NCBI GenBank assembly: GCA_041653595.1
Contig: JBAZFB010000001.1
Coordinates: 68,467-132,466, forward strand
Direction: 5' to 3'
Source: Candidatus Omnitrophota bacterium
GTDB lineage: Bacteria; Omnitrophota; Gorgyraeia; Pluralincolimonadales; Pluralincolimonadaceae
DNA: 64,000 nucleotides
The position numbers and the translations under genes were made by a program. Shown here piece after piece: positions 31,469 through 57,056 of this stretch. Position 1 is the stretch's first letter; every line of letters starts with the position of its first letter. Under the pieces are notes generated by a model that was not told the DNA's origin, searched no databases, and was given only the letters and a program-made list of their open reading frames with translations.

Positions 31469-32491
31469 TCACTGTTTTGCTATCCAGTCGAGGGCTTGCG
31501 AAATTATCGCCGGGGAAGGCCATTCGTGTCCGCCTTCGAATTCGTGCTTATAGACCTTCAGGTGGTTCGTATCTAACTTCGTATAAACCTTCTTTACCTC
31601 CTCCAGATTAGAGTCTTTCTTTCCTATACACAAATAGACGGCTACATTTTTGGCTATCTCCTGCCTTTCATCGGCGAACCCCGCGGCGCAGGCGATCACG
31701 CCCTTGAATTGGGCCGGATGGCCATATGCCATTTTAAACGACATCCTTGCTCCTCCTGAAAGGCCTGCCGCGTAAAACCGTTTTTCGTCGACCCTGAAAC
31801 GCTTCGGGATATCTTTAAGCATTGCCTCTTGCGCGCTGACTATGGGCTCCCACGGCCCGTTCTTGGCATCATGCGAACCGACAACGATCCATCCCAGGTT
31901 ATCCGCGGCGTAAGCAAACCGTTTAGCGGCATCTTCGCCGTTCCCGTTGGGGTCAAAACAGAAAAGAACGGGTCTCTTGGTTTTCGTATCATAATTGGAC
32001 GGCAGACGGACGGTATACCTATATGACGCGGAACCCGCATTGAAACTTATTGTATCGACAAGCTTAACGGGTTTTTCCTCCACCGGCTTTTGTTCCGCCG
32101 CTTCTTTTCTTTCTTCGGGTTCCGGTTTGGCTAACTTCTCATGTTCATCTTTCGTCACCCATTTGCCGTCGTATAAGATAAGCCCTTTGGCTTCCTGTTC
32201 GGCCGCAGTTTTTTTCCACTGTTCGTGCTCGGATTCGCGCTGCTGTTTTTGATCCTCCCATTTTTTCTTTAATTTCGCGTTCTCGCCGTCGCTCGCTTTT
32301 GAGATCGATTCTATGAGTGACTTGGGATAGGTCATCCTGCCGATATTTACGGCAACGACCACCGAATCGTCCGTTTCTATCTCTATCACACCTTCGACAG
32401 AACCGCCGGATTTGAGGCAAATAACATCCGCGAAAACGGCGGTAGGAATTAAGAGGAAGATAATAAGAAATAAAAGCGAGTGTTTTTTCAT
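31469..32491 (-). CDS. Secreted alpha/beta-hydrolase esterase (PHB-depolymerase-like esterase family)
   Basis: Signal peptide, charged coiled-coil-like linker, GLSGG nucleophile elbow. Confidence 0.6.
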   Translation of the reverse strand: MKKHSLLFLIIFLLIPTAVFADVICLKSGGSVEGVIEIETDDSVVVAVNIGRMTYPKSLIESISKASDGENAKLKKKWEDQKQQRESEHEQWKKTAAEQEAKGLILYDGKWVTKDEHEKLAKPEPEERKEAAEQKPVEEKPVKLVDTISFNAGSASYRYTVRLPSNYDTKTKRPVLFCFDPNGNGEDAAKRFAYAADNLGWIVVGSHDAKNGPWEPIVSAQEAMLKDIPKRFRVDEKRFYAAGLSGGARMSFKMAYGHPAQFKGVIACAAGFADERQEIAKNVAVYLCIGKKDSNLEEVKKVYTKLDTNHLKVYKHEFEGGHEWPSPAIISQALDWIAKQ

Positions 32492-32494
32492 TTG

Positions 32495-35400
32495 TCATTC
32501 TTTATTTTCTTTAGAGCTCTTAATAATATCCTTTATCTCGATATCTAAATTTGAAGTTATGAAGCTTTCTTCTTGTTTAAAGATCTCTTTTTTATTTAAT
32601 CCTTTATCCTTATCAAATGCTTTCCTTAAAATTTCGAGCGCTTTCTTTTTGTCGTTCTTCCTTAAATATGATACGCTCAATCCCAATGCATCGGTTGCCT
32701 TAAACTTGCCTTTCCCGAGAACCTTCTGGAAGATTTCGATGGCTTCGTCATATTTACCATTCTCGTAATACGCCCATCCAAGGGTTCCAAGATGATCATG
32801 ATCTTCGGGACCTAATTCCACACCCTTCTTTGCCCAATAAATCGTCTTGTCTCTTTCAGAGTTTTCTATTATAGAATCCCATGCGAGGTTATTGTAAGCG
32901 CACCCAAGGGTCGAACCATATTCAATGGCTTTCTTATAATAGAAAATAGCTTGTTTGAAATCATCTTTTTTATCGAATAAAAATCCCAAGCGTTCATAAG
33001 TATAATGATATTCGGGATTTATGCTTTCTTCAAGTTTGAATTCTCTTATTGCATCATCGACTTTATCCTTCTTCTTATAAGCTAAACCTAAAAAATAATG
33101 GGCTCTTCCAATATCCTCGTCTAATTCCAAGGCTTTTTTGGCGTTATCAATAACTTGTTCAATATTATCTTTTTTATAAAATACGCGGCAAATTTCCACG
33201 CGAAGCTCTGGGCTATCGGGCATGATTTCCAGGCCCTTTTTCAATAACTGAAGCGCTTTATCTACTTCATTTACATCAAAATACAATTCGTTCAACCAAA
33301 CATAAGCATCTGTGTATTTATTATCCAACTCAAGGCATTTAAGATATGACTGCTCTGCCTCTTTAAACATTTTTTTATTTCCATAAATTACTGCCAGATT
33401 ATAATAAACTGCTGGGGATTTAGGAGACAACGTCTGAGCCTTGAGGGTTTCCTTAAGCGCCTTATCATATTCATGATTATGGGAATACCTTGAACCGAGA
33501 CTCAAGTGAGCCAATGCAAAATAAGGGGCTATATTAAGGGCCTTCTCGAGCAGGACCTTCGTTTCATCATAAATTTTTCTATCATTTTTATTGCTACCTA
33601 TAAGAGCCATATATTTATCCCAATAGCAGTCGGCATCAAAAGGGTCAAGCTTTAAAGCCGCGTCATACATATAATCGGCTGTATCTATCCGGCCCGCAGG
33701 GAAAAAATTTGCTAATTCTTTATACGCAAGAGAAAAATTAGGGTCTTTTTTTAGAGCCAACCTCAGATAGATCAATCCTTCAAAAAAAGATGTGACATTT
33801 CTTTTTGAAATATTTTCTCCCTGATAAGCCCCCTTGGAATATAATAAAAAACAGCTAAAATCAGGAAGATAGAATTCTTCTATTCGCCTTCTCTCTAAAT
33901 CTGAAATTGATACTTCCAAATTTTTAACTATTTGAAAAATCATCTTTTGGCTCGCCTTCAGAAAGACATCTTTTCTACACTTAATCTCATCTAAAACTAT
34001 GGTTGCATTCCTCTTTTTATCAAAGATTGAAACGCTCAGGATCAAACTATTGTTATCGCTGCTTTCCTGAGAAACCCTGCCTATCAAAAGGTATTCTACT
34101 CCCCGTTTTTCACATGCTGCGGTCAGTTCCTTTCCGTTTTTTAAAAAACAATTTTTCTCGCCAGGTTCGCTGTAATAATCTAATATTGAAAACTTTCTTA
34201 TGCACATTAAATTTCTTCTAAATACCCGCTGTAAACCGATATTGATCGGCTGATGTTCCTCCGCTAAGCTGCCTACATCAAAATAGGAAATGCCTATTCG
34301 CATAGGATCCTTTATAATAATATCTTCCGGAGATATTACGGGTAAGACAGCCTCAGGATACTTTCGTAAATTCGGCCGCGGCAGTTTCGATAATTCTTCG
34401 AAAGTCATACCGGCAGTTCCTTTATAATCAAGTACCTCAAAGCGGTCAAAATAACAACTCCCGAGCATCTGGTAATTATACAAGGCGAGCGCCTTAAAAC
34501 TTAAATCCGTATCGGAAAACTTTATATGTCCGGCATCGACAAAGCCAATTTGATTCACTGTAACATCTACCGGCAGCCAAGTACCATTATCATAAATTTC
34601 GTTCCACATATGATACCCAAAATAGCCGTGGCCATAAGAGATCCCGAGAACGCCCTTTGCGGGTATGCCTAATGAACGGCAAAGAGCGCAAAATAAGACC
34701 GCATATTCCGAACAATCCCCTTCCTTGATCTTCAAGACATCTCTAGCGGAATAAAATCCTTTCTTTTCCGTAAATTTAATCTCGCCATTGATCCATTTGG
34801 AGATCTTGGTGACTTTTGTAATTATGTTCTCGTCGGCGCCTGCTATCTCCAAGGCGAGGGATCGAATTGCGTTATCGTTAATCTCGGCGTAAACGGAATC
34901 CGCTAAATATTTATTTGTATTTTCTCTCCCGATCTTAAATATCCTGTCGGGAATTTTTATATTATTCTCTACGATGACTTCGTAATTATTATTTATAAAA
35001 CTGACTTTTTGACGGGGACTTCTTAGGATCAAATTGTTCCTGATGAGCGTAAAAGAACGGCCCTTTACTTTCAGATAATAAAGTTTGTTCAAATCCACCA
35101 TATAAGTAGCAACCGGTATCGAAGACCTCTTGGATGCCGGCAATATCGCATCTTTTTCGACCTCAGATTCAGGGATTACTTTATATAACACATTTATATT
35201 TTCATATTGACCGCTAATTAATTTACCGTCTTCATCGATTATAAATCGTTGATTTAAATTATCAAAAGTTTTGCTGCTGACTGCAATTTCAAAAAAAACC
35301 TTCTGTTTGCCCCCGATGGGTGACTCGAACTTTCTGACAACCGTAAGTTTTTCTTTTATGACCTCAAGAAAATCCTCTTCAAAGACGTCAAATTCATAGG

Positions 35401-35857
35401 ACCCCACCCCCAGATTTCTATCAGCCACTAATTTCATTAAAATGACCGAGGGATACACTTTGCTGTTTGTTGACACCTTGCAATGCGTAACGTAACCATT
35501 TCTGGTAATATCGATTGCAATACCCTCTTTTGTCGCTCTCGCTTCAGCATAGAGTTCGCCTTCATACTCATGATTCTTTAATTCTAAATGGTCTAAGCTT
35601 AAATCCTTATTGACAAAAACGATAATTTCCCCTGTTTTTTTTGAATCGGGCGCATCCGCAGTCGGATAGTCATAGCTCAGTATCCTCACTTCGTGCCCTT
35701 CTTTATCCTCGCGGGGCAAAATCCGGTAGTTAAAATAGCCTGTCTTCTTGTTTTCAAAAAATATATTGCCCCAATATTCTTCATTGATTGCATCAGCCAA
35801 TGTGTATCCGGTGGACATGGATATTATCAAAATTGTAAAGAAAAATTTAAATTTCAT
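32495..35857 (-). CDS. Large secreted transglutaminase-like cysteine-protease-fold protein with C-terminal TPR repeats
   Basis: Signal peptide. TGase-like core (EGDCSEYAVLF...GYHMWNEIYDNGTWLPVD; Cys-His-Asp). More than 10 TPR motifs in the C-terminal half. Strongly AT-rich codon usage. Confidence 0.7.
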   Translation of the reverse strand: MKFKFFFTILIISMSTGYTLADAINEEYWGNIFFENKKTGYFNYRILPREDKEGHEVRILSYDYPTADAPDSKKTGEIIVFVNKDLSLDHLELKNHEYEGELYAEARATKEGIAIDITRNGYVTHCKVSTNSKVYPSVILMKLVADRNLGVGSYEFDVFEEDFLEVIKEKLTVVRKFESPIGGKQKVFFEIAVSSKTFDNLNQRFIIDEDGKLISGQYENINVLYKVIPESEVEKDAILPASKRSSIPVATYMVDLNKLYYLKVKGRSFTLIRNNLILRSPRQKVSFINNNYEVIVENNIKIPDRIFKIGRENTNKYLADSVYAEINDNAIRSLALEIAGADENIITKVTKISKWINGEIKFTEKKGFYSARDVLKIKEGDCSEYAVLFCALCRSLGIPAKGVLGISYGHGYFGYHMWNEIYDNGTWLPVDVTVNQIGFVDAGHIKFSDTDLSFKALALYNYQMLGSCYFDRFEVLDYKGTAGMTFEELSKLPRPNLRKYPEAVLPVISPEDIIIKDPMRIGISYFDVGSLAEEHQPINIGLQRVFRRNLMCIRKFSILDYYSEPGEKNCFLKNGKELTAACEKRGVEYLLIGRVSQESSDNNSLILSVSIFDKKRNATIVLDEIKCRKDVFLKASQKMIFQIVKNLEVSISDLERRRIEEFYLPDFSCFLLYSKGAYQGENISKRNVTSFFEGLIYLRLALKKDPNFSLAYKELANFFPAGRIDTADYMYDAALKLDPFDADCYWDKYMALIGSNKNDRKIYDETKVLLEKALNIAPYFALAHLSLGSRYSHNHEYDKALKETLKAQTLSPKSPAVYYNLAVIYGNKKMFKEAEQSYLKCLELDNKYTDAYVWLNELYFDVNEVDKALQLLKKGLEIMPDSPELRVEICRVFYKKDNIEQVIDNAKKALELDEDIGRAHYFLGLAYKKKDKVDDAIREFKLEESINPEYHYTYERLGFLFDKKDDFKQAIFYYKKAIEYGSTLGCAYNNLAWDSIIENSERDKTIYWAKKGVELGPEDHDHLGTLGWAYYENGKYDEAIEIFQKVLGKGKFKATDALGLSVSYLRKNDKKKALEILRKAFDKDKGLNKKEIFKQEESFITSNLDIEIKDIIKSSKENKE

Positions 35858-36288
35858 GTATTTTCGTCTTTCTTTTTCATAATAAAAATTTTAGTAACTA
35901 TAATTTTTTGAATGCTGCTTGTATTATTATACCTCATAATTATAAGTATTTAAAGGAGTTAGGCAAAGGTCTTTGATCAATTTGTGGAGGGTAAATCAGT
36001 TTGGCTTTTGATTATCTATCAGTATCGGGTGGCGCACTCTGGGAAATAAGAATATTATCCTTGATAAGCTACAATTTTAGCAGAAATCCCTGGGGACAGT
36101 TCTGGGATTAAATACAAAAACGTCCCCTTACTTCCCTAAAAAGCCAAGTCGCTGGTTGGAAAGCCATTTTCTAGGTGACTTTGGGATACTGTGTATAATT
36201 TTTGCACCGTGCGCTCTTGAGGCAGGATAAAACTACTTGTCAATTAAGTTAATTCCGGACCCTATTTTTTCTCTGTTCTTTTTCATTT

Positions 36289-36630
36289 TCATGGCATTGT
36301 AACATAAAAGCCATGTTTTATTAAAATCGGCGCTAAAATTCGTAATGCAAGGTGAAAAAATACAAGCATTAAAACGCCTATCTGGAATAAGGTTGCTAAC
36401 ATACTTAAAATAATCGAGACTAATTTGTTTATCTTTGAAAAATTTTTAAATAAATAACCTGCCGTGCCAACAAAAATCAGAATACTTACCAAAAGTATTA
36501 CCGGTAACCAAAATTTTTGAAATATCTTACCACTACCTCCTTGACCCGCTAATACATCAGCTATGAAAACTATCGAACTCAAAAATAGGTAAGCTACATA
36601 CCCAATAATGCATAAAATAAATGATTGCAT
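36289..36630 (-). CDS. Small polytopic membrane protein, candidate immunity protein for the upstream RHS toxin
   Basis: 113 aa with 3-4 TM segments. GGGGGA RBS. Starts 18 nt after the toxin stop. AT-rich. Confidence 0.45.
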   Translation of the reverse strand: MQSFILCIIGYVAYLFLSSIVFIADVLAGQGGSGKIFQKFWLPVILLVSILIFVGTAGYLFKNFSKINKLVSIILSMLATLFQIGVLMLVFFHLALRILAPILIKHGFYVTMP

Positions 36631-36647
36631 AATTATTCCCCCTTTTC

Positions 36648-39600
36648 TTAATATAAAGGAATTGGTTTATCTGCACCGGGTTGCCACCCGGGCAAATTTG
36701 GTATATTGGAAACACCGGCATCTTCTAAAATTCCATAAGTATAGGAGTTACTATTATAAAAGGGATCAATTGGCCAAGGTGTAGCATCATATGATAAATC
36801 ATTTTCATATTTTCCTGCTGAATTCAAGATATCTTTTATCAAATTTGTATCTGAACGTTTATCTAATATCCTCTGGCTATTTTTTAATTTTTCAGGTCTG
36901 TCAGCGGAGCTGCAAGGCGTAGCTACTAATTTACCATCTTTAGGATTGGCACTTAAGGTAAGTTCCAATTCGCCCTTTGAATTCTTATAGAAACCTGAGT
37001 TGGCAAAATCACTTGGATTATCGGGATGAAGTATAATTACCGTGTGGCTCCCCATTCCTAATACAGGCCTTGCTCCTATTGCTACATATAATCCCCACGG
37101 ATCATACTTATTAATGGGATCGTTATTGAGGTAGACGTAAAGGTTGGGTCCGTCTATCATCTCCAACGGGTCTTTGGTGATGAAGCGCCCTATTAAGGGG
37201 TTGTAATACCTGGCGCCGAAGAAGACAAGCCCTGTCTGGGGAGTGTATTCCTTGGTCTTGTAGGCGTATTTGGATTCCAAAGAGCCGGACTGATAGATTA
37301 TGTTGCCGAACGCATCGTAATCGTAGGTCTGGATGACAACGCCACTGCTGTTGGTTATCTGGTTGACGTTGCCTAAGTTGGAGTCATGATAATAGAGCGT
37401 ATTCGTCCAGTCGAAACTGCTTACAAGCCCTCCTATCCCTCCGGGGGCTGAAGGCAACTTGGAGTACATTATCAGGATATTATTTGAGGGGTCTCTTTCA
37501 ATGAGCGGGGCAAGGCCGTCATAGAGGTATTTTACCACGTTGCCGCCTATGTTGGTAGTGATACGTCTGCCGTCGCCTGAATAGGCGTAGTAGGTATTTA
37601 TATAGGGGGTTATTATGCCCCAGGGCCTGTTCTCGTAGTCGTAGTAGTAATAGGTGGTGCCGGTCCTACTGTTGGTTTCAACAACGAGATTGCCGTTGTT
37701 GTCGTAGGAGTAGCTTATCGACTCATACGGTAAAATCCTTGAAGTAATCTGGTTGGCGGCGTTATATGAGTTGGATATGGGGAGGCCGTCTCTTGTTTCT
37801 GAAGTGCGGTTTCCGGCATTGTCATAGGTGTAATTTCTGGTGTATGGGTATGAGCCTGTTTTGTCCTCATGGGTGAGGCGCCCAGCGTCGTTGTAGATAA
37901 AGTTATAGGTGTTGCCGAAGTTGTTGCTAATAGTTGTTATCTTACCGAGACTGTTGTAGTCATAGTGGTAACTCGAGAGGGTGTTCTGGGAACCATCTTT
38001 AACCGTTAAGGTGTTTACCCTGTCGTTGTCGTAGTAGAGCCATTCGGTGTAGGTGGAGTTGGGATAGTTCATTCTTGTCAGGCGGTTAGCGGTGTCGTAG
38101 TAAAAGGTTGTAGTCTGGCTCTGGGAGTTGGTCAGGGTATAGGGCAGGTTGTTGGCGTAGTAGGCGTAAGAGAAGTAACCTGCCGGAGTGGTCATGGATA
38201 TCCTGTTACCCGCGTAGTCATAGAAGTAGGTTATGGTGTCGTTGGCCTCGGGGCCGTCTACGGACGAGAGCCATGTCCTTGAGTTGTAGGTGTAGGTTGT
38301 CGCGCCATAATAATCGGTCATGGTAGCTGTTTTGCCATATCTGTTGTATAAATATACCACAGAGTTCGAGTCCGGGTATGAAACGGAATAAAGCTTGCCC
38401 GCTAAGTCATAGGTATAGGTGATGGTGTTGCCGTTAGCGTCTGTCTTGGTCTTGAGCTTACCGTTCTTGTAGTAGGTGCAGGTTGTTGTTTTGTTTAAAG
38501 GGTCAGTCTCGGTTAAGACGACGTTGACGTTGGGGTCATAGGTGTAAGTGGTGGTGTGGCCGTTCTGGTCTACCACGGAGGTAAGGTTACCTACCTCATC
38601 ATAATTGTAGGTCGTAGTATTTCCCAAGCCGTCTGCGACTGTCTTTATGCGGTAATAGCTATCAAAGGTGCGGCTTTCGACGGCTAAAAGCGTGCTGTCC
38701 GGACGGTATTTCTTCATGGTAGTGTAGTTTTTGCTGTCATTGAGTAATGGCGGGGAGCTTTCATAAGTGAAGATAGTTATCTCTTGGGTAGGGTCGGTTA
38801 CTTTAGTCAGGCGATTGTAGTGGTCGTTGTATTCGTAGGTGGTCTCAACAGGATTACCGTTGACGTAGCGGATGAGTTTCGTCATATTACCGAACGCGTC
38901 GTATTCATATTGCGTTACTTTGGTTCCAGGATCGGTTATGCTTACGCACTGGTTGAGTTCATTGTAAACATAGGTTGTTGTATGATTATTCGCGTCCCTG
39001 AAGGTCAAGAGATTGGAGTTTTTGTCGTAAGTATATTCTTCATAGCTTGAGTCGGGATAGGTCTTTCTCGTGAGCCGGCCTAAACCGTCATATTCGTAAC
39101 TTGTGGCAATCGGATCACTGCCGCTGTTATCGCCGTATTTTGAGGAAGTCATACGACCAAGTGTATCGTACGTGTACTGAATATAATTGCCTTCCCCATC
39201 CGTTTCCTTGGTGGTATTTCCGTATGTGTCGTAGGTATAATCCGTGGCTATGCCTTCGGGATCGATTATCTTCGTAAGACATCCGTACTGGTCGTACTGT
39301 TTTTCTATCGTCGCCGTTCCCTGATTATTGGGAGAAGGTGTGTATCTATGCCTTAGATTGCCATTTGAATCGTAGTCATATGTCCACGCCCTCTCTTTGG
39401 GATCTGTTATCGAAGTGATATAATGAAAAGTGGGGTCATAAGTAAAATACGCGGTATAACCTTCGTCGTTGTCGAGCTGCAAGGCGCTGCCAAAACGGTC
39501 TTGCACCCAGCCGCAGCCTTTGCCGTTCTCATCCGTAACCGAATCGCGAATATAACTATCATCGAAAGTGTAATTTGTTACGCCGTTATTTGAATCCGTA

Positions 39601-42600
39601 ATGCGAGTAATCTTTCCCTTCACGTATTCAAAGATGCTGGTTCTGTTGCGCATGTCGGTTATTGTGGTAATGCCTGTTTCAAAGAGATATTCATAAGTCG
39701 CCTGATTTCCTTTTGCGTCAGTAACGCGGTCGCAGACGTCGCTTATGTTCGAAGGGTCCCTGATATAATGATATTCCGTCCTGTTTCCCTCTGAGTCGAT
39801 ATACGCAGTTACGTTATGGATATTGCTTGCGTCATTATATTCGTATGTTTCCGAATAATTTTCGGGGCCTGTCACCGAAATTAGGTTTCCATTGTCATAA
39901 TAATAATTATAGGTAACCGAAAGCGAACCGGCAACACCTGTCACCGTCGAAATCCGGCCGTTACTATAGGTAAAGTCAATATGCCTGTCCCAATTTTCGT
40001 ATATCATATACAAAATGGGGCCGCCATAAATATACGAAAGACGGTTTCCGTTTAAGTCCTCAATATATAAAACACGACGGGTACCTTGATAGTTATCGAA
40101 ATGATATCTCTGTTTCCCGTACTTAATGGTCCAGCGCATCCAGTCATATGTCCCGTCACCATTATTGATTAGCTCCGAGCCGTCGCATTCAGGCCCGTAG
40201 TAGGAGCCGGCGCCGTTATACTCGTAACTAAATATCGTTCCATCCGGCCCGGTTATGATGACTTTTTCGGGATCCTGCCCTTGAGCCGGGATTACCTGCA
40301 TTTTGACATCGTGCGCAAGCGCCCAACCAAAGCCTATTTTGGAATCAACCTCACTGCTCGATGAATAGGTCCTTGTAAGATTCAGGCTGATGCCGTGTTT
40401 TCTCCCCCTTCCTAGTATGAATATATCTGTCTTCGGAATGATCACCTGGCCGCCTGTTATGGCTATTGGGTCAACGGGGGTGTCGCACTGTGTCGACGCG
40501 CGTTGCCCGCTTCCCATATATGTCATTCCTAACCCGCCGTCCGCATGCGGGTTATGCCCCGTCATCGAATCGTAAAGGTTAACACCCATCAAGTAATCCT
40601 CAGGAAGGCTTGCCTCCAATTTGCCATACTCTACTTCCCATTCGCCATTCGGAAGAACACCGGGATCGTTCTTAGTTATGCCTCCCTCGGATGACCGGCG
40701 ATTACCGCCCTTAATGGCTAACAGCTCGTCGGCAGCTAATTCTTTAACGTCAGGACGAGCCTTGACCGCCAGTATCTGTCCCTTCCATCTGGCCGGAAGC
40801 TCTTTATAGCTAATGAATTCGCTTGATAAATTATCTCTAACCAATATGCCGGCTGATCTTATACTCTCAAGGAATGCGTAATGACCGCTGTCTATAAACA
40901 GTATCGCTTCCCCGTTGTATTCCTTCAGTTTTTCTGCATCAATCTTAAATGCTGATACTTTCAAACCGTTATTTTTGGCCGCCTTTATAAGACCAAGTAA
41001 AGTGGTCCCGTCTTTATCCGTTCCGGCGGATTTAGCTATCTCTTTCGGCGTAGATTTTATACCGTAAGTCTTAAGCAATAAATTCAATGCATATGGGCCG
41101 CAAGCGTTATTTAGCGATGTCGCCGCTGACTGTTTGCCCAATCTTTCTATCAGCTTCAGCACCCCTTTGGCCTCGGCTGTCAGGAAATGATACGGATAAT
41201 TGGACACTAGCCGCTCAAAAGTTTCTTTGGCAAGCGGATAATTCCGCTGGTAATACCGGACCTTTCCTATCCAGAATAGAGCTTCCGCGGCATAGTAGGT
41301 GTCGCTGTTTAACGCTGTTTCATATTCCTTAAGGGCTTTTTCATAATCTTTGCGTTCAAAATATATGTGGCCTATCTCTATATGAAGCGGAGCCACAAAT
41401 TTACCCTCATCTATCTTGCTCTGCGCGTAAGCTATCGCCTCATCCGCCCCGTAATATATGACCTTACCCGTCATAGGATCTCTTTTCTTCTTCTCGCGTA
41501 ACGCTTGGACGATCTTAATATCGTCTCCTTGCGACTTAAAATATTCTATCGCCTTGTCGAATGACCTGAGCTGCCAATATATGTCCCCCAAAGCGTCCAG
41601 GTCGTTTGCTGTGTTAAAATATTTGATTGCCTGGTTAAACTGCTTTCTTTTTAGGGCCATCCTTCCCAATCCGGACATATCGTTGGCATCAGTAAAATAC
41701 TTCTCGGACTTTACGTAATCGCCAATTTCGCCGTAGAGAAAACCGAGGCCGGAAATATCATTAGCCTTTTGAAATAGTTCCAACGCTTTGTCGAATTTCT
41801 TGTCCTTAAGTTGAGTGAGACCTAATCCCGAGAGGTCGTTGGCGGCTGTAAAACAATTCTCCGCCTCCTTGAAATCACCCGCTCCCAGATAAACGTGACC
41901 TAACAACGAAAGATCATTCGCATTCTTGGCATATTGCGCGGCTCTTGCATAATCTTTCTGCACGCAATAGGTAAACCCTATGCCCGAAGGGTCGTTCGCT
42001 TTGGTAAAACTATCCAGCGCTCCCTTATAATTATGCCCCTTAAGATACGCATAGCCTAAGGCGGACGGGTCGTTTGCCTGTTTCGCGTATGATAGAGCGG
42101 CGGAATAGCTATTCATACCGTTATAGGCGACACTTAAGCCGGATTTGTCGTTTGCCTGGCTAAAAGAGCTGATAGCTTTGTCGTATTGCCTCTTGCCGCA
42201 GTAGGCATGGCCTAAGGCAGATAGATCGTTTGCCGCCAAGGCATATTTTATCGCTTCGTCGAATTGTTTCTTTCCTGAATAAGCAAGGCTTATCCCGGAG
42301 AGATCATTTGCCTGCTTAAAATATTTTAAAGCGCTGTCAAAATCCCTTTTGCCGCAGTAGGCATGGCCTATCCCCGAATTGTCCTTGTTAGAAGCGAACT
42401 GAGTAAGCGCCTCGTCGTATCTTCTTTCAGCCAAAAGGACAAGGCCGAGGCCCCCTTTGTCCCCTGCCTGGCTAAACCATCCCCGCGCTTCGTCTATCTT
42501 ATTTTCTCCCAGAGCCGCCAGGCCCATCCCCGAATAATCATTCGCCTGCCTGAAATATTCTCTTGCCTTGCTAAAATCTCTTTTTCCGCAGTAAGCGAGG

Positions 42601-42923
42601 CCTATCCCCGAGTAATCCTTCTTCTGCTCAAAGTGTCTTATTGCTTCATCATATTGGCGTTTTCCGCAATAGGCCATCCCCATCCCGGAAAGATCATTTG
42701 CTTTTTCAAAACTTTCCTTCGCAATGTCGTAACACCTCATCCCCAGATAAGCTATCCCCGCGCCGGAATAGTTATTCTTTTTTAGATATATTTCCAGCGC
42801 TCCTTTATAGTCGCCTTGCTCGATAGCCCGGAAGGCGATAACATCATCGGCAGATTCGAAACCCAGTATAAATAACGAACCCAATATCAACGCCGCGGCC
42901 ACTAAAACTATTTTCCTTTTCAT
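36648..42923 (-). CDS. Sec-secreted RHS/YD-repeat polymorphic toxin with an N-terminal 26-aa repeat array and an internal C39-like peptidase domain
   Basis: Probable start MKRKIVLV at 42923 (AAGGAG-6nt-ATG). Signal peptide. About 16 copies of ANDxSGxGxAYCGKRxYDxAIxxFxQ. C39 motifs NNACGPYAL and GHYAFL. Many YD repeats (YEYDAFGN, YTYDTLGR, YEYDGLGRLT). RHS core end ...NKYDPWGLY followed by a ~165-aa unrecognised C-terminal domain. Confidence 0.8.
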   Translation of the reverse strand: MKRKIVLVAAALILGSLFILGFESADDVIAFRAIEQGDYKGALEIYLKKNNYSGAGIAYLGMRCYDIAKESFEKANDLSGMGMAYCGKRQYDEAIRHFEQKKDYSGIGLAYCGKRDFSKAREYFRQANDYSGMGLAALGENKIDEARGWFSQAGDKGGLGLVLLAERRYDEALTQFASNKDNSGIGHAYCGKRDFDSALKYFKQANDLSGISLAYSGKKQFDEAIKYALAANDLSALGHAYCGKRQYDKAISSFSQANDKSGLSVAYNGMNSYSAALSYAKQANDPSALGYAYLKGHNYKGALDSFTKANDPSGIGFTYCVQKDYARAAQYAKNANDLSLLGHVYLGAGDFKEAENCFTAANDLSGLGLTQLKDKKFDKALELFQKANDISGLGFLYGEIGDYVKSEKYFTDANDMSGLGRMALKRKQFNQAIKYFNTANDLDALGDIYWQLRSFDKAIEYFKSQGDDIKIVQALREKKKRDPMTGKVIYYGADEAIAYAQSKIDEGKFVAPLHIEIGHIYFERKDYEKALKEYETALNSDTYYAAEALFWIGKVRYYQRNYPLAKETFERLVSNYPYHFLTAEAKGVLKLIERLGKQSAATSLNNACGPYALNLLLKTYGIKSTPKEIAKSAGTDKDGTTLLGLIKAAKNNGLKVSAFKIDAEKLKEYNGEAILFIDSGHYAFLESIRSAGILVRDNLSSEFISYKELPARWKGQILAVKARPDVKELAADELLAIKGGNRRSSEGGITKNDPGVLPNGEWEVEYGKLEASLPEDYLMGVNLYDSMTGHNPHADGGLGMTYMGSGQRASTQCDTPVDPIAITGGQVIIPKTDIFILGRGRKHGISLNLTRTYSSSSEVDSKIGFGWALAHDVKMQVIPAQGQDPEKVIITGPDGTIFSYEYNGAGSYYGPECDGSELINNGDGTYDWMRWTIKYGKQRYHFDNYQGTRRVLYIEDLNGNRLSYIYGGPILYMIYENWDRHIDFTYSNGRISTVTGVAGSLSVTYNYYYDNGNLISVTGPENYSETYEYNDASNIHNVTAYIDSEGNRTEYHYIRDPSNISDVCDRVTDAKGNQATYEYLFETGITTITDMRNRTSIFEYVKGKITRITDSNNGVTNYTFDDSYIRDSVTDENGKGCGWVQDRFGSALQLDNDEGYTAYFTYDPTFHYITSITDPKERAWTYDYDSNGNLRHRYTPSPNNQGTATIEKQYDQYGCLTKIIDPEGIATDYTYDTYGNTTKETDGEGNYIQYTYDTLGRMTSSKYGDNSGSDPIATSYEYDGLGRLTRKTYPDSSYEEYTYDKNSNLLTFRDANNHTTTYVYNELNQCVSITDPGTKVTQYEYDAFGNMTKLIRYVNGNPVETTYEYNDHYNRLTKVTDPTQEITIFTYESSPPLLNDSKNYTTMKKYRPDSTLLAVESRTFDSYYRIKTVADGLGNTTTYNYDEVGNLTSVVDQNGHTTTYTYDPNVNVVLTETDPLNKTTTCTYYKNGKLKTKTDANGNTITYTYDLAGKLYSVSYPDSNSVVYLYNRYGKTATMTDYYGATTYTYNSRTWLSSVDGPEANDTITYFYDYAGNRISMTTPAGYFSYAYYANNLPYTLTNSQSQTTTFYYDTANRLTRMNYPNSTYTEWLYYDNDRVNTLTVKDGSQNTLSSYHYDYNSLGKITTISNNFGNTYNFIYNDAGRLTHEDKTGSYPYTRNYTYDNAGNRTSETRDGLPISNSYNAANQITSRILPYESISYSYDNNGNLVVETNSRTGTTYYYYDYENRPWGIITPYINTYYAYSGDGRRITTNIGGNVVKYLYDGLAPLIERDPSNNILIMYSKLPSAPGGIGGLVSSFDWTNTLYYHDSNLGNVNQITNSSGVVIQTYDYDAFGNIIYQSGSLESKYAYKTKEYTPQTGLVFFGARYYNPLIGRFITKDPLEMIDGPNLYVYLNNDPINKYDPWGLYVAIGARPVLGMGSHTVIILHPDNPSDFANSGFYKNSKGELELTLSANPKDGKLVATPCSSADRPEKLKNSQRILDKRSDTNLIKDILNSAGKYENDLSYDATPWPIDPFYNSNSYTYGILEDAGVSNIPNLPGWQPGADKPIPLY
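41480..42790 (-). repeat. Tandem ~78-bp coding repeats (26-aa half-TPR-like unit) in the N-terminal region of the RHS protein
   Basis: Approximately 16 consecutive 26-aa units with consensus ANDLSGLGxAYCGKRxYDxAIxYFxQ, read from the translation. Confidence 0.6.
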
Positions 42924-42939
42924 CACGCTCTCCTTCTTT

Positions 42940-44571
42940 TTATTGGAGCGTCTTGCCAATGAATAACAATATTACCGCCAGAATGATCAGAGGAGTTATT
43001 GCCAAGAACCTGACAAATCTATTCTCAAAGCCGCTATTTAGAATCACTACCCCTATTGCAGTGCCTGCGGCGAAAGACAAAAACCAGATATTCCGTGAAG
43101 TTAAGCCGATGGTTAAAAAGAGTCCCGCGAAAACACATTCTATAATCACGGCTATCTTGCTGTTAGCAAGGCTGACGGAGTTATCGGCCGTGACGGGAAA
43201 ATCGGCTTTTTTGCTGACAAGATAAGCTAACGCGGCAATAGAGGAATTCACCTGCGTAGCATAGAACATGAACGTATACATGGCAATATAGCGAAATCTC
43301 TTTACGGGATGATGAATCATTTCCAAAATGGCCGGCAGTATTGGTGCGACAATGGTCAGGATAAGCATGGAAAAGAAATCCCATCTCCAAAAAAGGTTGC
43401 CCGAGATCCCGACCAATGTCCCAACGAAAGTATCATTGAAGGCAAGCGGCATTTTAAACATTGGGCCTTGGAATTGGAAATGGTAAAAATAGAACGGCAG
43501 GATTATCCCTACCGACAAAAGAAGCGCTAAAAACGGAAGGCCTAACAACAGGCTCTGAGCTGAAACGATGATGTCGAATTTTTCAATCCAGCTTATATTC
43601 CTGCTTTTGAGGAAATCCGGGTAGAATTTAAAAAGACATTCCGCCGTTCCCCTTATCCACTTTTCATTTCTTTTCCTATACTGGCGGTAGGTTGAAGGAA
43701 AATCCTCCATACAGGTTACGTCTTTTGCGTATACGCCGTAGTATCCCTTCTCCTTTATCTTCATAGAATACGCGAGGTCCTCTGTCGCCACCTCGGGGAA
43801 ACCGCCGATCGCCCTTAAAACATCGAGGCGCATTAACGCCCCGTGCCCGTAGAACATAACAAATCCATATTTATTTTTGGTACTCAGGTAATGGTCGCAA
43901 TGGAGTTCGATCTGATAACCGAGGCCTTGCGCGAAAGTTGATTTTTGATTCGAATTAAATTCCTGGCGCGATTGAACGAAAGCAACACGCGAATCACTAA
44001 AATACGGAAACAGTTTAATTATATAGTCGCTAGGTAATAGCGTATCGGCGTCAGATACGCTGAAATACTCGAAGTTCCCTATTTTACTCAATCCGTAGTT
44101 TAAATTACCCGCTTTATACCCGATCCTTTCCGGGCGCCGTATTACACTTATTGCCTTAGAATATCTGGCTACAAATTCGTCTATTCTCTCTTTGTATTCT
44201 CTGTTGGTGCTGTCATCCAAAATAAAGGTACGGAAATTGTCGTAGCCCTGAGCGAGACAAGTTAAGACCGCCTCTTCTTTAAAGTCATTGCAGGTGGTAT
44301 AGAGCAATGCGACCGCGGGAGCCTTTTCCTGATTTTGCCGAACGATATTATAGCCCGGCGTAGATTTGATATATGAGAATAGAATTATTACAAGGTGATA
44401 AAATGCATAAAACCAAAAAATATTAAGTAAGATACTAAAACATGCTACGGCAATTTTAGCAAAGATATTTTCTGGACCAACAACAAGGGCTAACACGCGG
44501 GGGCTAAAATAAAAAGCGGCGCATAGCCAGCAAAAGATCATTGTGCCGAACATTACAGGGTTCTTTTTCAT
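42940..44571 (-). CDS. Family-2 glycosyltransferase, processive polysaccharide synthase type (cellulose-synthase-like)
   Basis: N-terminal TMs. D, DxD (SDADTL) and Q-x-x-R-W-like (QYRKRNEKWIRG) motifs, then C-terminal TMs. The stop is 16 nt upstream of the RHS start. Confidence 0.7.
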   Translation of the reverse strand: MKKNPVMFGTMIFCWLCAAFYFSPRVLALVVGPENIFAKIAVACFSILLNIFWFYAFYHLVIILFSYIKSTPGYNIVRQNQEKAPAVALLYTTCNDFKEEAVLTCLAQGYDNFRTFILDDSTNREYKERIDEFVARYSKAISVIRRPERIGYKAGNLNYGLSKIGNFEYFSVSDADTLLPSDYIIKLFPYFSDSRVAFVQSRQEFNSNQKSTFAQGLGYQIELHCDHYLSTKNKYGFVMFYGHGALMRLDVLRAIGGFPEVATEDLAYSMKIKEKGYYGVYAKDVTCMEDFPSTYRQYRKRNEKWIRGTAECLFKFYPDFLKSRNISWIEKFDIIVSAQSLLLGLPFLALLLSVGIILPFYFYHFQFQGPMFKMPLAFNDTFVGTLVGISGNLFWRWDFFSMLILTIVAPILPAILEMIHHPVKRFRYIAMYTFMFYATQVNSSIAALAYLVSKKADFPVTADNSVSLANSKIAVIIECVFAGLFLTIGLTSRNIWFLSFAAGTAIGVVILNSGFENRFVRFLAITPLIILAVILLFIGKTLQ

Positions 44572-44612
44572 CTTAATTAGGGTTCGAAAGGTGTCGAAAA
44601 ATTAAAACAAAA

Positions 44613-44636
44613 AACGGCGATTAGAAAATCGCCGTT
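44613..44636 (-). terminator. Rho-independent terminator (AACGGCGATT-agaa-AATCGCCGTT) with a U-tract on the minus strand
   Basis: Perfect 10-bp stem followed on the minus strand by TTTTTTGTTTTAATTTTT. Confidence 0.55.
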
Positions 44637-44769
44637 ACGGAATTAATTTGGTACTCTAAGCGGGTAAAACTCCATCGGAATTTCTCCTTAAAAGAGCTTT
44701 CGCCGGAAGAAAAAAGGAAATCTATTTTATCTCTTAATTAAAATGGCCACTCCTTAATATGATTACGTA

Positions 44770-44796
44770 GGGCGGCACTTTTATCAAGTGCCGCCC
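44770..44796 (-). terminator. GC-rich hairpin immediately after the stop of the giant GH gene
   Basis: GGGCGGCACTT-ttatc-AAGTGCCGCCC is a perfect 11-bp stem with no strong U-tract. Confidence 0.4.
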
Positions 44797-44813
44797 CAAT
44801 GTGGTTTAAGTCT

Positions 44814-56428: not shown

Positions 56429-57056
56429 TAGGGACGGTTCTTGAGCCAATCGGAGAAGTGTCCCCTATTAATATTAAAAATTTCTGAAAGAAAATCCCTT
56501 TTTCTTGCGTCTATTATATAACAAGGAGGTTTAAGATGCCAAGGAGCGCAAGAGTATTTATAGAAAATGCCTGCTATCATATTATAGCAAGGGGAAACCA
56601 AAAACAAGAGGTTTTCTTTGAGACAGTTGACTACGAAAAATATCTTCAACTGCTGAAAAAGTACAAAACAAAATACCATTTTAAACTCTACGGTTACTGC
56701 CTTATGAATAATCATGTACATATGGTGATAGACCCCGGGAAACCACGAGAAATATCCAAAGCCATACAGGGACTGAATTTATCTTATTCGATATGGTTCA
56801 ACGCAAAATATGACAAAATCGGGCATCTTTGGCAGGACCGTTTTAAGAGTATGGTTATTGAAAAAAATGATTATCTTATTACCTGTATCAACTATATTGA
56901 GGCCAACCCCGTCAGGGGAAACATAGTAAACAGCCCTTTGGATTATCTTTGGAGTAGCTATAAAGAAAGAATCTTCGATATAAAAAATGGGGTTTTAGAT
57001 GTACCAGAATTATTTTGAGGGACATTTCTCCGATTGGCTCAAGAACCGTCCCTAGA
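56429..57056 (+). mobile_element. REP-RAYT-REP unit: IS200/IS605-like Y1 (REP-associated tyrosine transposase) gene flanked by inverted REP-like repeats
   Basis: CTAGGGACGGTTCTTGAGCCAATCGGAGAAGTGTCCCC at 56429-56465. Its reverse complement (2 mismatches) is at 57018-57056 and begins at the RAYT stop codon. Confidence 0.7.
56536..57018 (+). CDS. REP-associated tyrosine transposase (RAYT; IS200-like Y1 HuH transposase)
   Basis: 160 aa. HuH motif NNHVHMVID and catalytic Tyr region (NYIEANPVRG). Typical RAYT size. Confidence 0.75.
   Translation: MPRSARVFIENACYHIIARGNQKQEVFFETVDYEKYLQLLKKYKTKYHFKLYGYCLMNNHVHMVIDPGKPREISKAIQGLNLSYSIWFNAKYDKIGHLWQDRFKSMVIEKNDYLITCINYIEANPVRGNIVNSPLDYLWSSYKERIFDIKNGVLDVPELF

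Follow-up and report, generated by a model that had tools for sequence, protein, structure and literature searches.

A composition step at the DPxGL junction of an Rhs-type polymorphic toxin gene in Omnitrophota is consistent with separate histories of shell and tip

Introduction

Why does the codon usage of a large RHS gene in a Candidatus Omnitrophota genome change abruptly close to its 3' end, and does this change mark the edge of an exchangeable toxin and immunity cassette? The break in composition between the shell and the tip of Rhs genes has been known since the 1990s and is textbook knowledge. The Omnitrophota are small cells, most of them uncultured and some of them predators or parasites, and their weaponry has been little studied. 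The gene lies in a stretch of 64,000 nucleotides (assembly GCA_041653595.1, contig JBAZFB010000001.1), which we call the window, and all positions are counted from its first letter. A preliminary description had seen here the compositional signature of a displaceable C-terminal toxin and immunity cassette, and we have followed it up in the window and in related loci, which are given L numbers.

We conclude, with a probability of roughly 85%, that this is an Rhs-type polymorphic toxin locus, and that the step in composition reflects separate histories of the shell and of the module formed by tip and immunity gene. Since such a break is textbook knowledge, the finding mainly confirms the rule in Omnitrophota. 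What is new here is the lineage and an undescribed toxin domain, and the AT-rich signature of exchangeable cassettes is itself long known.

Organisation of the locus

The features of the locus are collected in Table 1. According to the ORF list and its translation the RHS gene can be read from a TTG and then encodes 2103 aa, but it likely starts at the ATG at 42923 (MKRKIVLV...), which would give 2091 aa. Multiple YD/RHS repeats are found, with RHS_repeat (PF05593, E 3.1e-65) matching in 12 stretches and TIGR01643 (E 4.7e-39) in 13. In the translation a hydrophobic signal or anchor segment (aa 13-35) stands N-terminal to the 26-aa repeats. The C39-like domain scores above its Pfam cutoff and has both the Cys (NACGPYAL) and the His motif (GHYAFL) that are expected of it; we predict it to be a peptidase. 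The DUF6531 region holds the stretch VDPIAITGG, which resembles an N-terminal autocleavage motif (compared with PMC8636562).

Table 1. Features of the RHS locus and its 3' neighbours, with the evidence for each.
Feature	Position	Strand	Evidence
RHS/YD-repeat polymorphic toxin gene	36648..42959	minus	ORF list, translation, Pfam, TIGR01643 and TIGR03696 matches
N-terminal ~26-aa (78-nt) repeats, TPR-model matches	41535..42711	minus	78-nt spaced direct-repeat families, TPR_2 E 7.7e-38, translation
Peptidase C39-like domain, aa 617-735	40755..41111	minus	PF03412 E 5.3e-21, 75.3 bits (cutoff 22)
DUF6531, N-terminal plug region of RHS shells, aa 830-909	40233..40472	minus	PF20148 29.6 bits (cutoff 24.1)
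YD-repeat shell	37320..40232	minus	Internal GC3 change point ~codon 1352; GC-skew plateau 37500-38900
RHS repeat-associated core domain, aa 1881-1957	37089..37319	minus	TIGR03696 72.8 bits (cutoff 32.5), profile 1-76 of 76
C-terminal toxin domain, 146 aa, aa 1958-2103	36651..37088	minus	GC3 0.26; AF2 pLDDT 96.5; after DPWGL
Putative immunity gene, 113 aa	36289..36630	minus	3-4 transmembrane segments, GC3 0.26
Secreted transglutaminase-core + TPR protein, 1120 aa	32495..35857	minus	GC 0.37, GC3 0.38
Esterase-like alpha/beta hydrolase gene	31469..32491	minus	PF00756; GC3 0.55

The core domain closes with PINKYDPWGL (aa 1948-1957), a sequence of the form PxxxxDPxGL. A first motif, DPLEM (aa 1930-1934, 37158..37172), precedes DPWGL (aa 1953-1957, 37089..37103) with 18 aa between them. 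By the rule that two DPLGL motifs 17 aa apart bear the catalytic Asp (PMC8636562), this core domain is presumed to be an aspartyl autoprotease; from the break in DNA homology (see below) we presume that it is the recombination junction as well. Against the NCBIfam equivalog of the RHS element core (NF041261) the protein reaches 136 bits where the cutoff is 2000, and its sequence thus places it as a distant relative of the enterobacterial equivalog and not as a member.

The domain scan found no PAAR, VgrG, LXG or TcB domain in the RHS protein, and the neighbours scanned in the window include no secretion-system gene that would link it to a PAAR/VgrG type VI system (T6SS), to a T7SS or to TcA/TcB. 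The architecture of anchor, 26-aa repeats and C39 domain has no known delivery machine in its vicinity, and one may ask by what route such toxins are exported and delivered.

The GC3 step at the junction

The last 500 shell codons have a GC content of 0.483 and a GC3 of 0.668, against 0.374 and 0.260 in the 146 codons of the C-terminal domain (GC3 of shell versus tip, Fisher p = 2.5e-18), and the downstream ORF (36289..36630) has 0.310 and 0.263. The maximum-likelihood change point in GC3 falls at codons 1944-1956 (~37097-37130), on or just 5' of DPWGL (codons 1953-1957), and its likelihood ratio was reached in none of 500 permutations. The drop survives stratification by amino acid (Mantel-Haenszel, odds ratio 6.4, p 2.5e-18) and can therefore not be explained by amino-acid content, which the stratified test rules out as its origin. 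Tyrosine is encoded by TAC and TAT in the proportion 42:25 in the shell and 0:8 in the tip, and aspartate by GAC and GAT in the proportion 26:6 and 1:11, respectively. The 33 backbone genes of the window have a GC3 of 0.68 +/- 0.08, and among 802 windows of 146 codons drawn from them there is not one with a GC3 of 0.30 or less, the lowest being 0.40.

The AT-rich codons that the preliminary description had noticed after DPWGL and in the downstream ORF are thus borne out, and the codons that it quoted (aaa tat gaa ... gct aca, or KYENDLSYDAT) are found on the minus strand at ~36811..36779. The profile of GC3 along the gene, proposed there as a check, is not uniform and has its change point at DPWGL. 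Two of its statements need to be modified. It had called the codons of the YD-repeat body mixed to GC-rich, but the body is uneven, with a GC3 of 0.51 up to ~codon 1352 (~38903) and 0.65 beyond, and its 3' part has ~50% C at third positions. It had also assigned a lower GC to the toxin domain and the immunity gene. The composition is as claimed, but the immunity ORF lies outside the interval assigned to it, and the low-GC tract goes on to ~32450.

Exchange of tips among related loci

Past DPxGL, unrelated sequences are found on shells whose last 307 aa are 49-87% identical, and BLASTP groups the 25 tips of these homologous shells into 20 clusters. At the junction GC3 drops in every one of 24 relatives (mean 0.27, Wilcoxon p 1.2e-7). 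Compared at the DNA level with the closest relative, L100, the shell has 85% identity in its final 246 nt and 90-93% in its final 60 nt, and from the first codon past DPWGL the identity is at chance. The whole architecture is shared with L005, L084 and L009 at 44-68% identity, and their tips are different. Related loci also hold arrays of a shell fragment, a tip and a small ORF, and these orphan modules include 150-300 aa of the 3' shell. The tip family of the window is found as an orphan module in L164 and L165, from other metagenomes, and in L089 and L165 it is likewise joined to RHS shells. The tips and partner ORFs of this family have a GC3 of 0.18-0.31 in loci where the shell has 0.43-0.71.

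At the level of sequence, these comparisons demonstrate that homologous shells swap their tips and that the break falls exactly on the conserved junction, and they support the earlier view of a displaceable cassette. Judging by the window and by all 24 related loci, a change-point search in GC3 at DPxGL is a reliable way to find cargo boundaries in Omnitrophota genomes. The expectation of orphan pairs of toxin and immunity gene in the vicinity did not hold for the window itself. A six-frame search of its 64 kb for the junction motif gave a single junction, a repeat search returned the N-terminal 78-nt repeats and no repeated junction, and in tblastn the full ORF sets from the closest related loci gave no additional tip or immunity homolog. 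With no orphan tip, second junction motif or junction repeat in the window, displacement is not directly seen here, and orphans occur in the related loci.

Alternative explanations

The tract of low GC extends from ~37050 to ~32450, with a GC of 0.30-0.43 against 0.54 in the backbone, and has the character of a low G+C trough. It measures 4.6 kb and exceeds the tip and the partner ORF, since it also takes in the 3.4-kb transglutaminase/TPR gene, which fills the slot where relatives carry orphan modules. In six related loci a homolog of the esterase-like gene (22% identity) closes the RHS arrays on their 3' side, and the gene probably flanks the variable slot on that same side. No tRNA genes were found as island boundaries, and no Rfam families in 31-45 kb.

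One could thus argue that DPWGL is the edge of a larger accessory block of 4.6 kb (32495..37088), set in the variable slot that the shell and the esterase-like flank enclose, and not of a cassette of 0.8 kb only. The GC that stays low along the tract, the recurring esterase-like gene, the order of tip, ORF and transglutaminase gene, which is repeated in the independent assembly L168, and the troughs that extend beyond the rhs gene in the study of Jackson et al. (PMC2935791) all agree with this. The tract is however not one homogeneous insertion, because GC3 is 0.26 in tip and partner ORF and 0.38 in the transglutaminase gene (p 3.5e-6). Moreover, in none of the related loci does a homolog of that gene stand beside the tip family of the window, and a spacer of 430 nt with promoter-like sites separates it from the partner ORF. 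We regard the larger block as rather unlikely. It is largely compatible with separate histories of shell and module, and differs only in the unit of transfer.

A slightly less probable alternative is that the step is partly made by the shell, the last 400-600 codons having been driven to a high, C-ending GC3, for instance by GC-biased gene conversion. The most recombining segment would then be enriched and its contrast with the tip exaggerated, which would complement the main explanation. The second change point near codon 1352, where GC3 rises from 0.51 to 0.65, was not equalled in any of 300 permutations, and a rise is seen in three full-length relatives as well (L005 0.50 to 0.75, L084 0.42 to 0.53, L009 0.35 to 0.46). 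The 150-300 aa of 3' shell in the orphan modules also mark out the recombining zone. The four genes are however orthologs and hence not independent samples, the rise is absent in L165, and it is C alone that is enriched (G3 0.09-0.18), unlike the symmetric pattern of gene conversion alone. The tip, at 0.26, is also far below the 5' shell at 0.51, so the drop is independent of the ramp in the shell.

Far less probable is an explanation by codon choice with no transfer at all, whether because the tip and the membrane ORF are weakly expressed or under relaxed selection, or because of their amino-acid composition. Codon adaptation is often weaker in accessory genes, and Ile, Leu, Phe and Lys, amino acids with AT-rich codons, are abundant in the partner ORF. 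But the drop withstands the amino-acid stratification, it takes place inside a single ORF over ~10 codons, and unrelated tips are found on homologous shells with the break in DNA homology at the same codon. The comparative data have already largely refuted this explanation.

The least probable is a chimera of the metagenome assembly at the conserved junction sequence: two independent short-read contigs do stop just 5' of the junction, at 37119 and 37199, but a join of this kind is made unlikely by identical independent contigs, as L169, from a different run, is 100% identical over the junction including 111 nt of shell that are only ~90% identical to the nearest other shell, and by the same pattern in 24 other loci from many assemblies and the pairing of the tip family with RHS shells in L089 and L165. 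Assemblers break at repeated sequence, as at these two contig ends.

The tip family and its partners

Judged from its sequence relatives, the tip belongs to a large, unannotated, RHS-associated family for which there is no Pfam model. At E <= 1e-3 the family is matched by 765 cluster representatives. The domain is at the extreme C-terminus in 147 of 154 proteins and directly preceded by an RHS-type junction in 86 of 92, and one member sits on a DUF637/PT-VENN (CdiA-type) protein. His15 and Ser113, the latter in the motif YNSNSY, are invariant in 41 diverse members. In the AF2 model (pLDDT 96.5) S113 opens the helix 113-123 and H15 is within the strand 13-20, and a conserved His on a strand and a Ser at the N-terminus of a helix would agree with the permuted order of papain-like enzymes.

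Neither the tip nor the partner ORF has any match in Pfam (E <= 10), NCBIfam, PADLOC or PHROGs. A search of PDB sequences with two profiles gave designed proteins and a HIT protein as best matches (E 0.27-1.1), and with Foldseek the sole credible match of two independent tip models was Aichivirus 2A (E 0.13-0.17). Aichivirus 2A is an H-box/NC relative of PLAAT3. With hhalign, the tip family and human PLAAT3, the sequence of which was verified against PDB entry 4dot, gave a probability of 0.2%. We know of no activity for DUF3750 (PF12570) itself. The window tip has no match to it at E <= 10 and does not reach the gathering score; 11 of 150 family members match it, all below threshold (best E 0.0011), and there are no DUF3750-annotated proteins among the best 120 matches of the family profile. 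DUF3750 has been classed as papain-like, with Ser replacing Cys (PMC10318531).

With low confidence we suggest that the tip may act at the cell envelope, as a hydrolase or acyltransferase of a serine-type papain-like, LRAT/DUF3750-like kind. Action at the envelope would fit with every partner protein seen being membrane-embedded. The assignment to an enzyme class is weak, considering the Foldseek and hhalign values and the lack of a Pfam match. A large RHS tip family without Pfam model, with an invariant His/Ser pair and membrane-embedded partners, is in any case a candidate for a new toxin activity.

The partner ORF begins 17 nt past the stop codon of the toxin and has a ribosome-binding site, GGGGGA. 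Homologs with 47-53% identity stand directly 3' of the same tip family in L001 and L165, so that this partner is adjacent to the tip in three loci. In other loci the ORF behind this tip family encodes an unrelated membrane protein, which belongs to a family B in L089, in L166 and at the orphan of L165, and is 170 aa long in L164 and 211 aa long in L004. We also considered that the 113-aa family (A) and family B might be homologs, which an hhalign probability of 0.3% speaks against. From its position and conserved adjacency only, we infer that the 113-aa membrane ORF is the immunity gene. Promoter and terminator scans around it gave nothing above chance.

A model of the locus

From its N-terminus on, the large protein is made up of an anchor, the 26-aa TPR-like repeats, the C39 peptidase domain, and the YD-repeat shell with the RHS core, in that order. 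The 146 aa past DPWGL would be the toxic cargo and the 113-aa membrane protein its protective partner. If the protein behaves like the Rhs and Tc proteins of solved structure, the Asp motifs in DPLEM and DPWGL would release the tip inside the shell. Exchange would take place by homologous recombination, with the conserved 3' end of the shell as homology arm, and incoming modules would be drawn from an AT-rich pool common to Omnitrophota. The present module is not adapted to the codon usage of its host (GC3 0.68), and the continuation of the low-GC tract through the accessory gene to the esterase-like flank fits the low G+C trough of enterobacterial rhs genes.

The 3' end of the shell is itself enriched in GC3, and a picture of a native shell and a foreign tip is therefore too simple. 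Tentatively, and with more doubt than belief, we propose a "ramp then cliff", in which GC3 increases over the last 400-600 shell codons and falls to ~0.3 in every tip whatever the baseline of the host (shell GC3 0.39-0.74), together with a new toxin class. If true, this would mean that recombination enriches the homology arm in GC, and that there is an AT-rich pool of cassettes throughout the phylum that turns over faster than it adapts to host composition. The toxin class, if true, would be a Ser-His papain-like (DUF3750/LRAT-like) family with the 765 cluster representatives, neutralised by multi-pass membrane proteins of no fewer than two unrelated families.

Comparison with known systems

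The tip resembles DUF3750, LRAT, PLAAT and H-box/NC proteins in that the modelled His is on a beta-strand and the nucleophile after it opens a helix (H15...S113). It differs from LRAT, PLAAT and H-box/NC proteins in its hhalign probability of 0.2% with PLAAT3 and in a Foldseek E of 0.13-0.17 only, and from DUF3750 in having no Pfam match at E <= 10. As in CdiA-CT/CdiI and the orphan arrays of other polymorphic toxins, a modular tip and a putative immunity gene stand behind a conserved pre-toxin junction. Unlike in CdiA, this junction is the DPxGL of RHS proteins and not VENN, and the carrier is a YD shell and not a filamentous haemagglutinin.

With the cocoons of Photorhabdus laumondii T6SS Rhs1 and of TcC (PMC8636562) the window protein shares RHS repeats, a DUF6531-type plug and a core domain, and its Asp-Pro motifs (DPLEM...DPWGL) are 18 aa apart, as compared with 17 in Rhs1, with the tip directly after the second motif. 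From this likeness we infer that the window protein may be autocleaved and its tip encapsulated. Unlike Rhs1, it has no PAAR, VgrG, Eag chaperone or T6SS gene in the window.

Rhs tips have been reported to differ in GC and codon bias (PMC8636562), and in enterobacterial rhs genes, compared in E. coli rhsA-H and Serratia marcescens SMA1610 by Jackson et al. (2009, PMC2935791), a G+C-rich core is followed by an A+T-rich tip and a trough of more than 7 kb, for which a displacement model has been proposed. The window differs from these in its phylum and its low NF041261 score, in having no orphan array of core fragment, tip and immunity gene within 64 kb, and in an N-terminus of anchor, 26-aa repeats and C39 domain instead of a PAAR or VgrG-linked one. 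In E. coli the GC of the core exceeds that of the genome, whereas the window shell is not richer than its genome, since GC3 in the last 500 codons is 0.67 against 0.68 in the backbone, and lower in the 5' part. The likeness is nevertheless extensive: a conserved YD shell extends up to a hyperconserved PxxxxDPxGL junction, beyond which come an unrelated tip of higher AT content and a small ORF, the low G+C trough reaches kilobases downstream, and tips are swapped between homologous cores, with orphan arrays of core fragments and tips in the related loci.

The RHS gene and its composition break

The preliminary description had held that the 3' end of the long RHS gene, together with the immunity gene behind it, is lower in GC than the RHS shell, and this is confirmed: the tip and the partner ORF both fall well below the shell in GC and GC3 (see table), and the AT-rich codons that were quoted are found in the sequence. 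The drop is real, lies at the DPWGL junction where it had been placed, and is far beyond chance (shell against tip GC3, Fisher test, p = 2.5e-18). The likelihood change point of GC3 falls at codons 1944-1956, with a value that was matched in 0 of 500 permutations, and no 146-codon stretch with a GC3 of 0.30 or less exists in the backbone genes of the window. The step remains after stratifying by amino acid (odds ratio 6.4, p 2.5e-18), and the difference lies in synonymous codon choice: for Tyr the shell has TAC:TAT counts of 42:25 and the tip 0:8, and the corresponding shell and tip counts are 26:6 and 1:11 for Asp and 46:9 and 2:10 for Asn.

Features of the RHS locus and their base composition (strand and composition where available)
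Feature	Position	Strand	GC	GC3	Details
RHS ORF	36648..42959	minus			2103 codons; ORF list and translation; 36648..37150 is the 3' end
Hydrophobic segment	N-terminus of RHS protein	minus
Repeats matching TPR models	after the hydrophobic segment	minus			about 560 aa
Peptidase_C39	aa 617-735, 40755-41111	minus			75 bits, cutoff 22
DUF6531	aa 830-909	minus
RHS repeats		minus			E 3.1e-65
RHS repeat-associated core domain, TIGR03696	aa 1881-1957	minus			72.8 bits, cutoff 32.5
Last 500 shell codons			0.483	0.668
DPWGL	codons 1953-1957, 37089..37103	minus
Tip	36651..37088	minus	0.374	0.260	146 aa; remainder after DPWGL
Partner ORF	36289..36630		0.310	0.263	113 aa; starts 17 nt past tip stop codon; GGGGGA ribosome-binding site; 3-4 hydrophobic segments
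Transglutaminase-core gene	32495..35857		0.37	0.38	1120 aa; signal peptide, transglutaminase core, many TPR repeats
Esterase-like gene	31469..32491			0.55	GxSGG motif; beyond it, backbone
33 backbone genes of the window			about 0.54	0.68 +/- 0.08

The start codon of the RHS gene is likely the ATG at 42923. The region upstream (42940-52034) holds a family-2 glycosyltransferase gene with a GC3 of 0.49, which ends 16 nt before this codon, and encodes a GH42-like protein of 2406 aa that has a CarboxypepD_reg domain. The first third of the RHS protein (41535-42711) consists of repeats of approximately 78 nt (26 aa), which match models of the 34-aa TPR; this architecture is common to the RHS proteins of the window and of the related loci L005, L084 and L009. 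The C39 domain has a Cys motif, NACGPYAL, and a His motif, GHYAFL, with apparent catalytic residues, and the last residues of the RHS core domain are ...NDPINKYDPWGL.

It is unlikely that the join of shell and tip is an assembly chimera, since two contigs from independent assemblies of other sequencing runs, L168 (35289..37119) and L169 (36209..37199), are 100% identical to the window, and L169 crosses the junction and takes in 111 nt of the window's particular shell. Both short-read contigs break off shortly before the DPWGL junction (30-110 nt upstream of it), as assemblers do at sequence common to several variants, and this may be a sign of several coexisting variants of shell or tip in the samples.

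Exchange of tips among related loci

The 307 C-terminal residues of the shell served as query against the JGI metagenomes and a set of GTDB genomes, one for each species. Shells of 49-87% identity were found in about 30 loci, almost all of which come from Omnitrophota or from MAGs of similar binning. The ORF in each of them runs beyond a DPxGL-type motif into sequence unrelated to the window tip, whose family is present only in L089, and 25 tips fall into 20 BLASTP clusters. L005, L084 and L009 carry other tips despite having the repeats, C39 and shell in common with the window at 44-68% identity. Tip GC3 is below shell GC3 in all 24 of 24 loci, with a mean difference of 0.27 (Wilcoxon p 1.2e-7), and across related loci it spans 0.17-0.40 for tips and 0.39-0.74 for shells. 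The junction peptide LYVYLNNDPINKYDPWGL is identical in L100 and the window, and DNA identity between the two is 85% for the 246 nt at the 3' end of the shell, reaches 90-93% in the final 60 nt, and drops to chance at the first tip codon.

Related loci also contain arrays in which a unit of shell fragment (150-300 aa), tip and small AT-rich ORF occurs up to three times, and these are the arrays that the displacement model predicts. An orphan copy of the window-tip family is present in each of L164 and L165. In L165 (1-4025) the family is present twice: first on the main RHS gene, which is followed by a 113-aa homolog of the partner ORF, and then downstream as the orphan, which is accompanied by an IS200-like transposase gene and by a 144-aa membrane protein unrelated to the 113-aa one. 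In L094 (873-1511) and L096 (1012-1728) the final shell fragment of the array stops at ...KEYSPETGLI, short of the junction, and borders on the esterase-like gene; this looks like a deletion scar closing the variable slot. The reading of tip and immunity gene as a displaceable cassette is supported by the unrelated tips on homologous shells, the GC3 drop in 24 of 24 loci, the break at the junction and the orphans in relatives.

The variable slot and the wider low-GC tract

Orphan pairs, which it had been proposed to look for in the flanking genome, were absent within 64 kb by motif, repeat and tblastn searches: the six-frame search gave a single junction motif, no DNA repeat of the junction was found in the window, and no further tip or immunity homolog was hit there by tblastn with the full ORF sets of the nearest related loci. 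The transglutaminase/TPR gene sits behind the immunity ORF and ahead of the esterase-like gene, in a slot that in relatives holds orphans; no homolog of this gene was found adjoining related RHS loci. Esterase-like homologs (22% identity, E about 1e-12) end the arrays at the 3' side in six loci (L087, L011, L051, L094, L096 and L098), and this recurrence suggests that the gene is a conserved flank of the variable slot. The next gene beyond it is a GspE-like ATPase in relatives and an ADP-forming acetyl-CoA synthetase in the window. At a distance of 19 kb from the RHS genes there is an IS200-like Y1 transposase ORF (56536-57018) with a low GC of 0.356, and homologs of about 34% identity adjoin RHS arrays in L165, L009, L102 and L004.

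The low-GC tract exceeds the tip/immunity cassette, as a GC of 0.30-0.43 persists to about 32450 and takes in a 430-nt spacer and the transglutaminase/TPR gene, which differs in GC3 from tip and partner ORF (p 3.5e-6). From 32.4 to 44.8 kb, the upstream glycosyltransferase gene included, composition is entirely below that of the backbone, and within the shell only the 3' part has a backbone-like GC3. A second GC3 change point is placed at about codon 1352 (~38903), where GC3 goes from 0.51 to 0.65 (matched in 0 of 300 permutations). About half of the third positions in the 3' shell part are C, which explains a GC-skew plateau at 37500-38900. L005, L084 and L009 also show a climb in GC3 across the last 400-600 shell codons, from differing baselines, and each climb ends in a crash at the tip. 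The climb could stem from gene conversion in a recombining arm, from joint transfer of pieces of the 3' shell or from codon selection.

The partner proteins and the tip family

Homologs of the partner ORF, of equal length and 47-53% identity, stand directly behind the window-tip family in L001 and L165, and have a GxGGSGKI loop and a C-terminal LAPIL...YVTMP in common. This type (family A) is replaced by proteins of 143-159 aa (family B) in L089, the L165 orphan and L166, and by unrelated proteins of 170 aa in L164 and 211 aa in L004; families A and B have no profile similarity to each other. All partner proteins have several hydrophobic segments, except that of L004, which has only two. An immunity function of the partner ORF is what we infer. 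Membrane-embedded immunity proteins are typical for toxins acting on or in the membrane, e.g. those of colicins and T6SS effectors. The membrane-embedded partners would fit a lipid- or envelope-directed tip enzyme, with which they are compatible without being proof of it.

A word-indexed search gave six relatives of the tip with 49-65% identity, all after DPxGL-type junctions, and an exhaustive profile search matched 765 cluster representatives at E <= 1e-3. The domain is the extreme C-terminus in 147 of 154 members and is preceded by an RHS-type junction in 86 of the 92 that have upstream sequence; there are full-length members with RHS repeats, and one with DUF637 and PT-VENN. The domain carries no Pfam annotation in any member. 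Invariant in 41 diverse members are H15, P22, D63, Y100, N112, S113, G125, P137 and G138, with the family motif YNSNS[YF]. An AlphaFold2 model made from the alignment of these 41 (pLDDT 96.5) places H15 on the second predicted strand and S113 at a helix N-terminus. Foldseek searches of the PDB with two independent models gave only Aichivirus 2A protein chains above noise (E 0.13-0.17, probability 0.41-0.77, TM 0.35-0.59), a protein of the H-box/NC type that is related to the phospholipase/acyltransferase PLAAT3. Profile comparison of the tip family with PLAAT3 itself was negative. Sub-threshold matches to DUF3750, the sole recurrent non-RHS Pfam family, occur in 11 of 150 members, and the window tip itself has no Pfam match; a survey places DUF3750 among the papain-like families with a conserved serine replacing the cysteine (PMC10318531). 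That the tip is a Ser-His papain-like hydrolase or acyltransferase is a tentative proposal, about which we are more doubtful than confident.

Discussion

Sequence comparison shows the components of an Rhs polymorphic toxin at the locus, and tips that are swapped between homologous shells at the DPxGL junction. By analogy with solved Rhs/Tc proteins, the tip would be enclosed by the shell and freed by a cut involving the Asp of DPWGL and an upstream DPLEM motif 18 aa away, and an N-terminal cut may be marked by the motif VDPIAITGG in the DUF6531 region (PMC8636562). There are no T6SS, T7SS or Tc genes within the window, and neither an ABC exporter nor another secretion gene near the C39-bearing RHS gene. 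Its N-terminus, with anchor, repeats and an apparently catalytic C39, is unlike those of PAAR- or VgrG-linked Rhs proteins; giant Omnitrophota proteins are reported to have C39 domains near the N-terminus as well (bioRxiv 10.1101/2023.11.21.568195).

The composition break is a known hallmark of Rhs loci, and what is new is confined to the lineage, the unannotated tip family with its membrane partners, the unusual N-terminal architecture and the ramp-then-cliff pattern of GC3. GC content and codon bias set Rhs tips apart from their shells (PMC8636562). The enterobacterial rhs loci have a G+C-rich core and an A+T-rich tip, their trough can exceed 7 kb, and their tips are replaced by laterally acquired alternatives (PMC2935791), and this published description of composition and displacement matches the RHS locus of the window.
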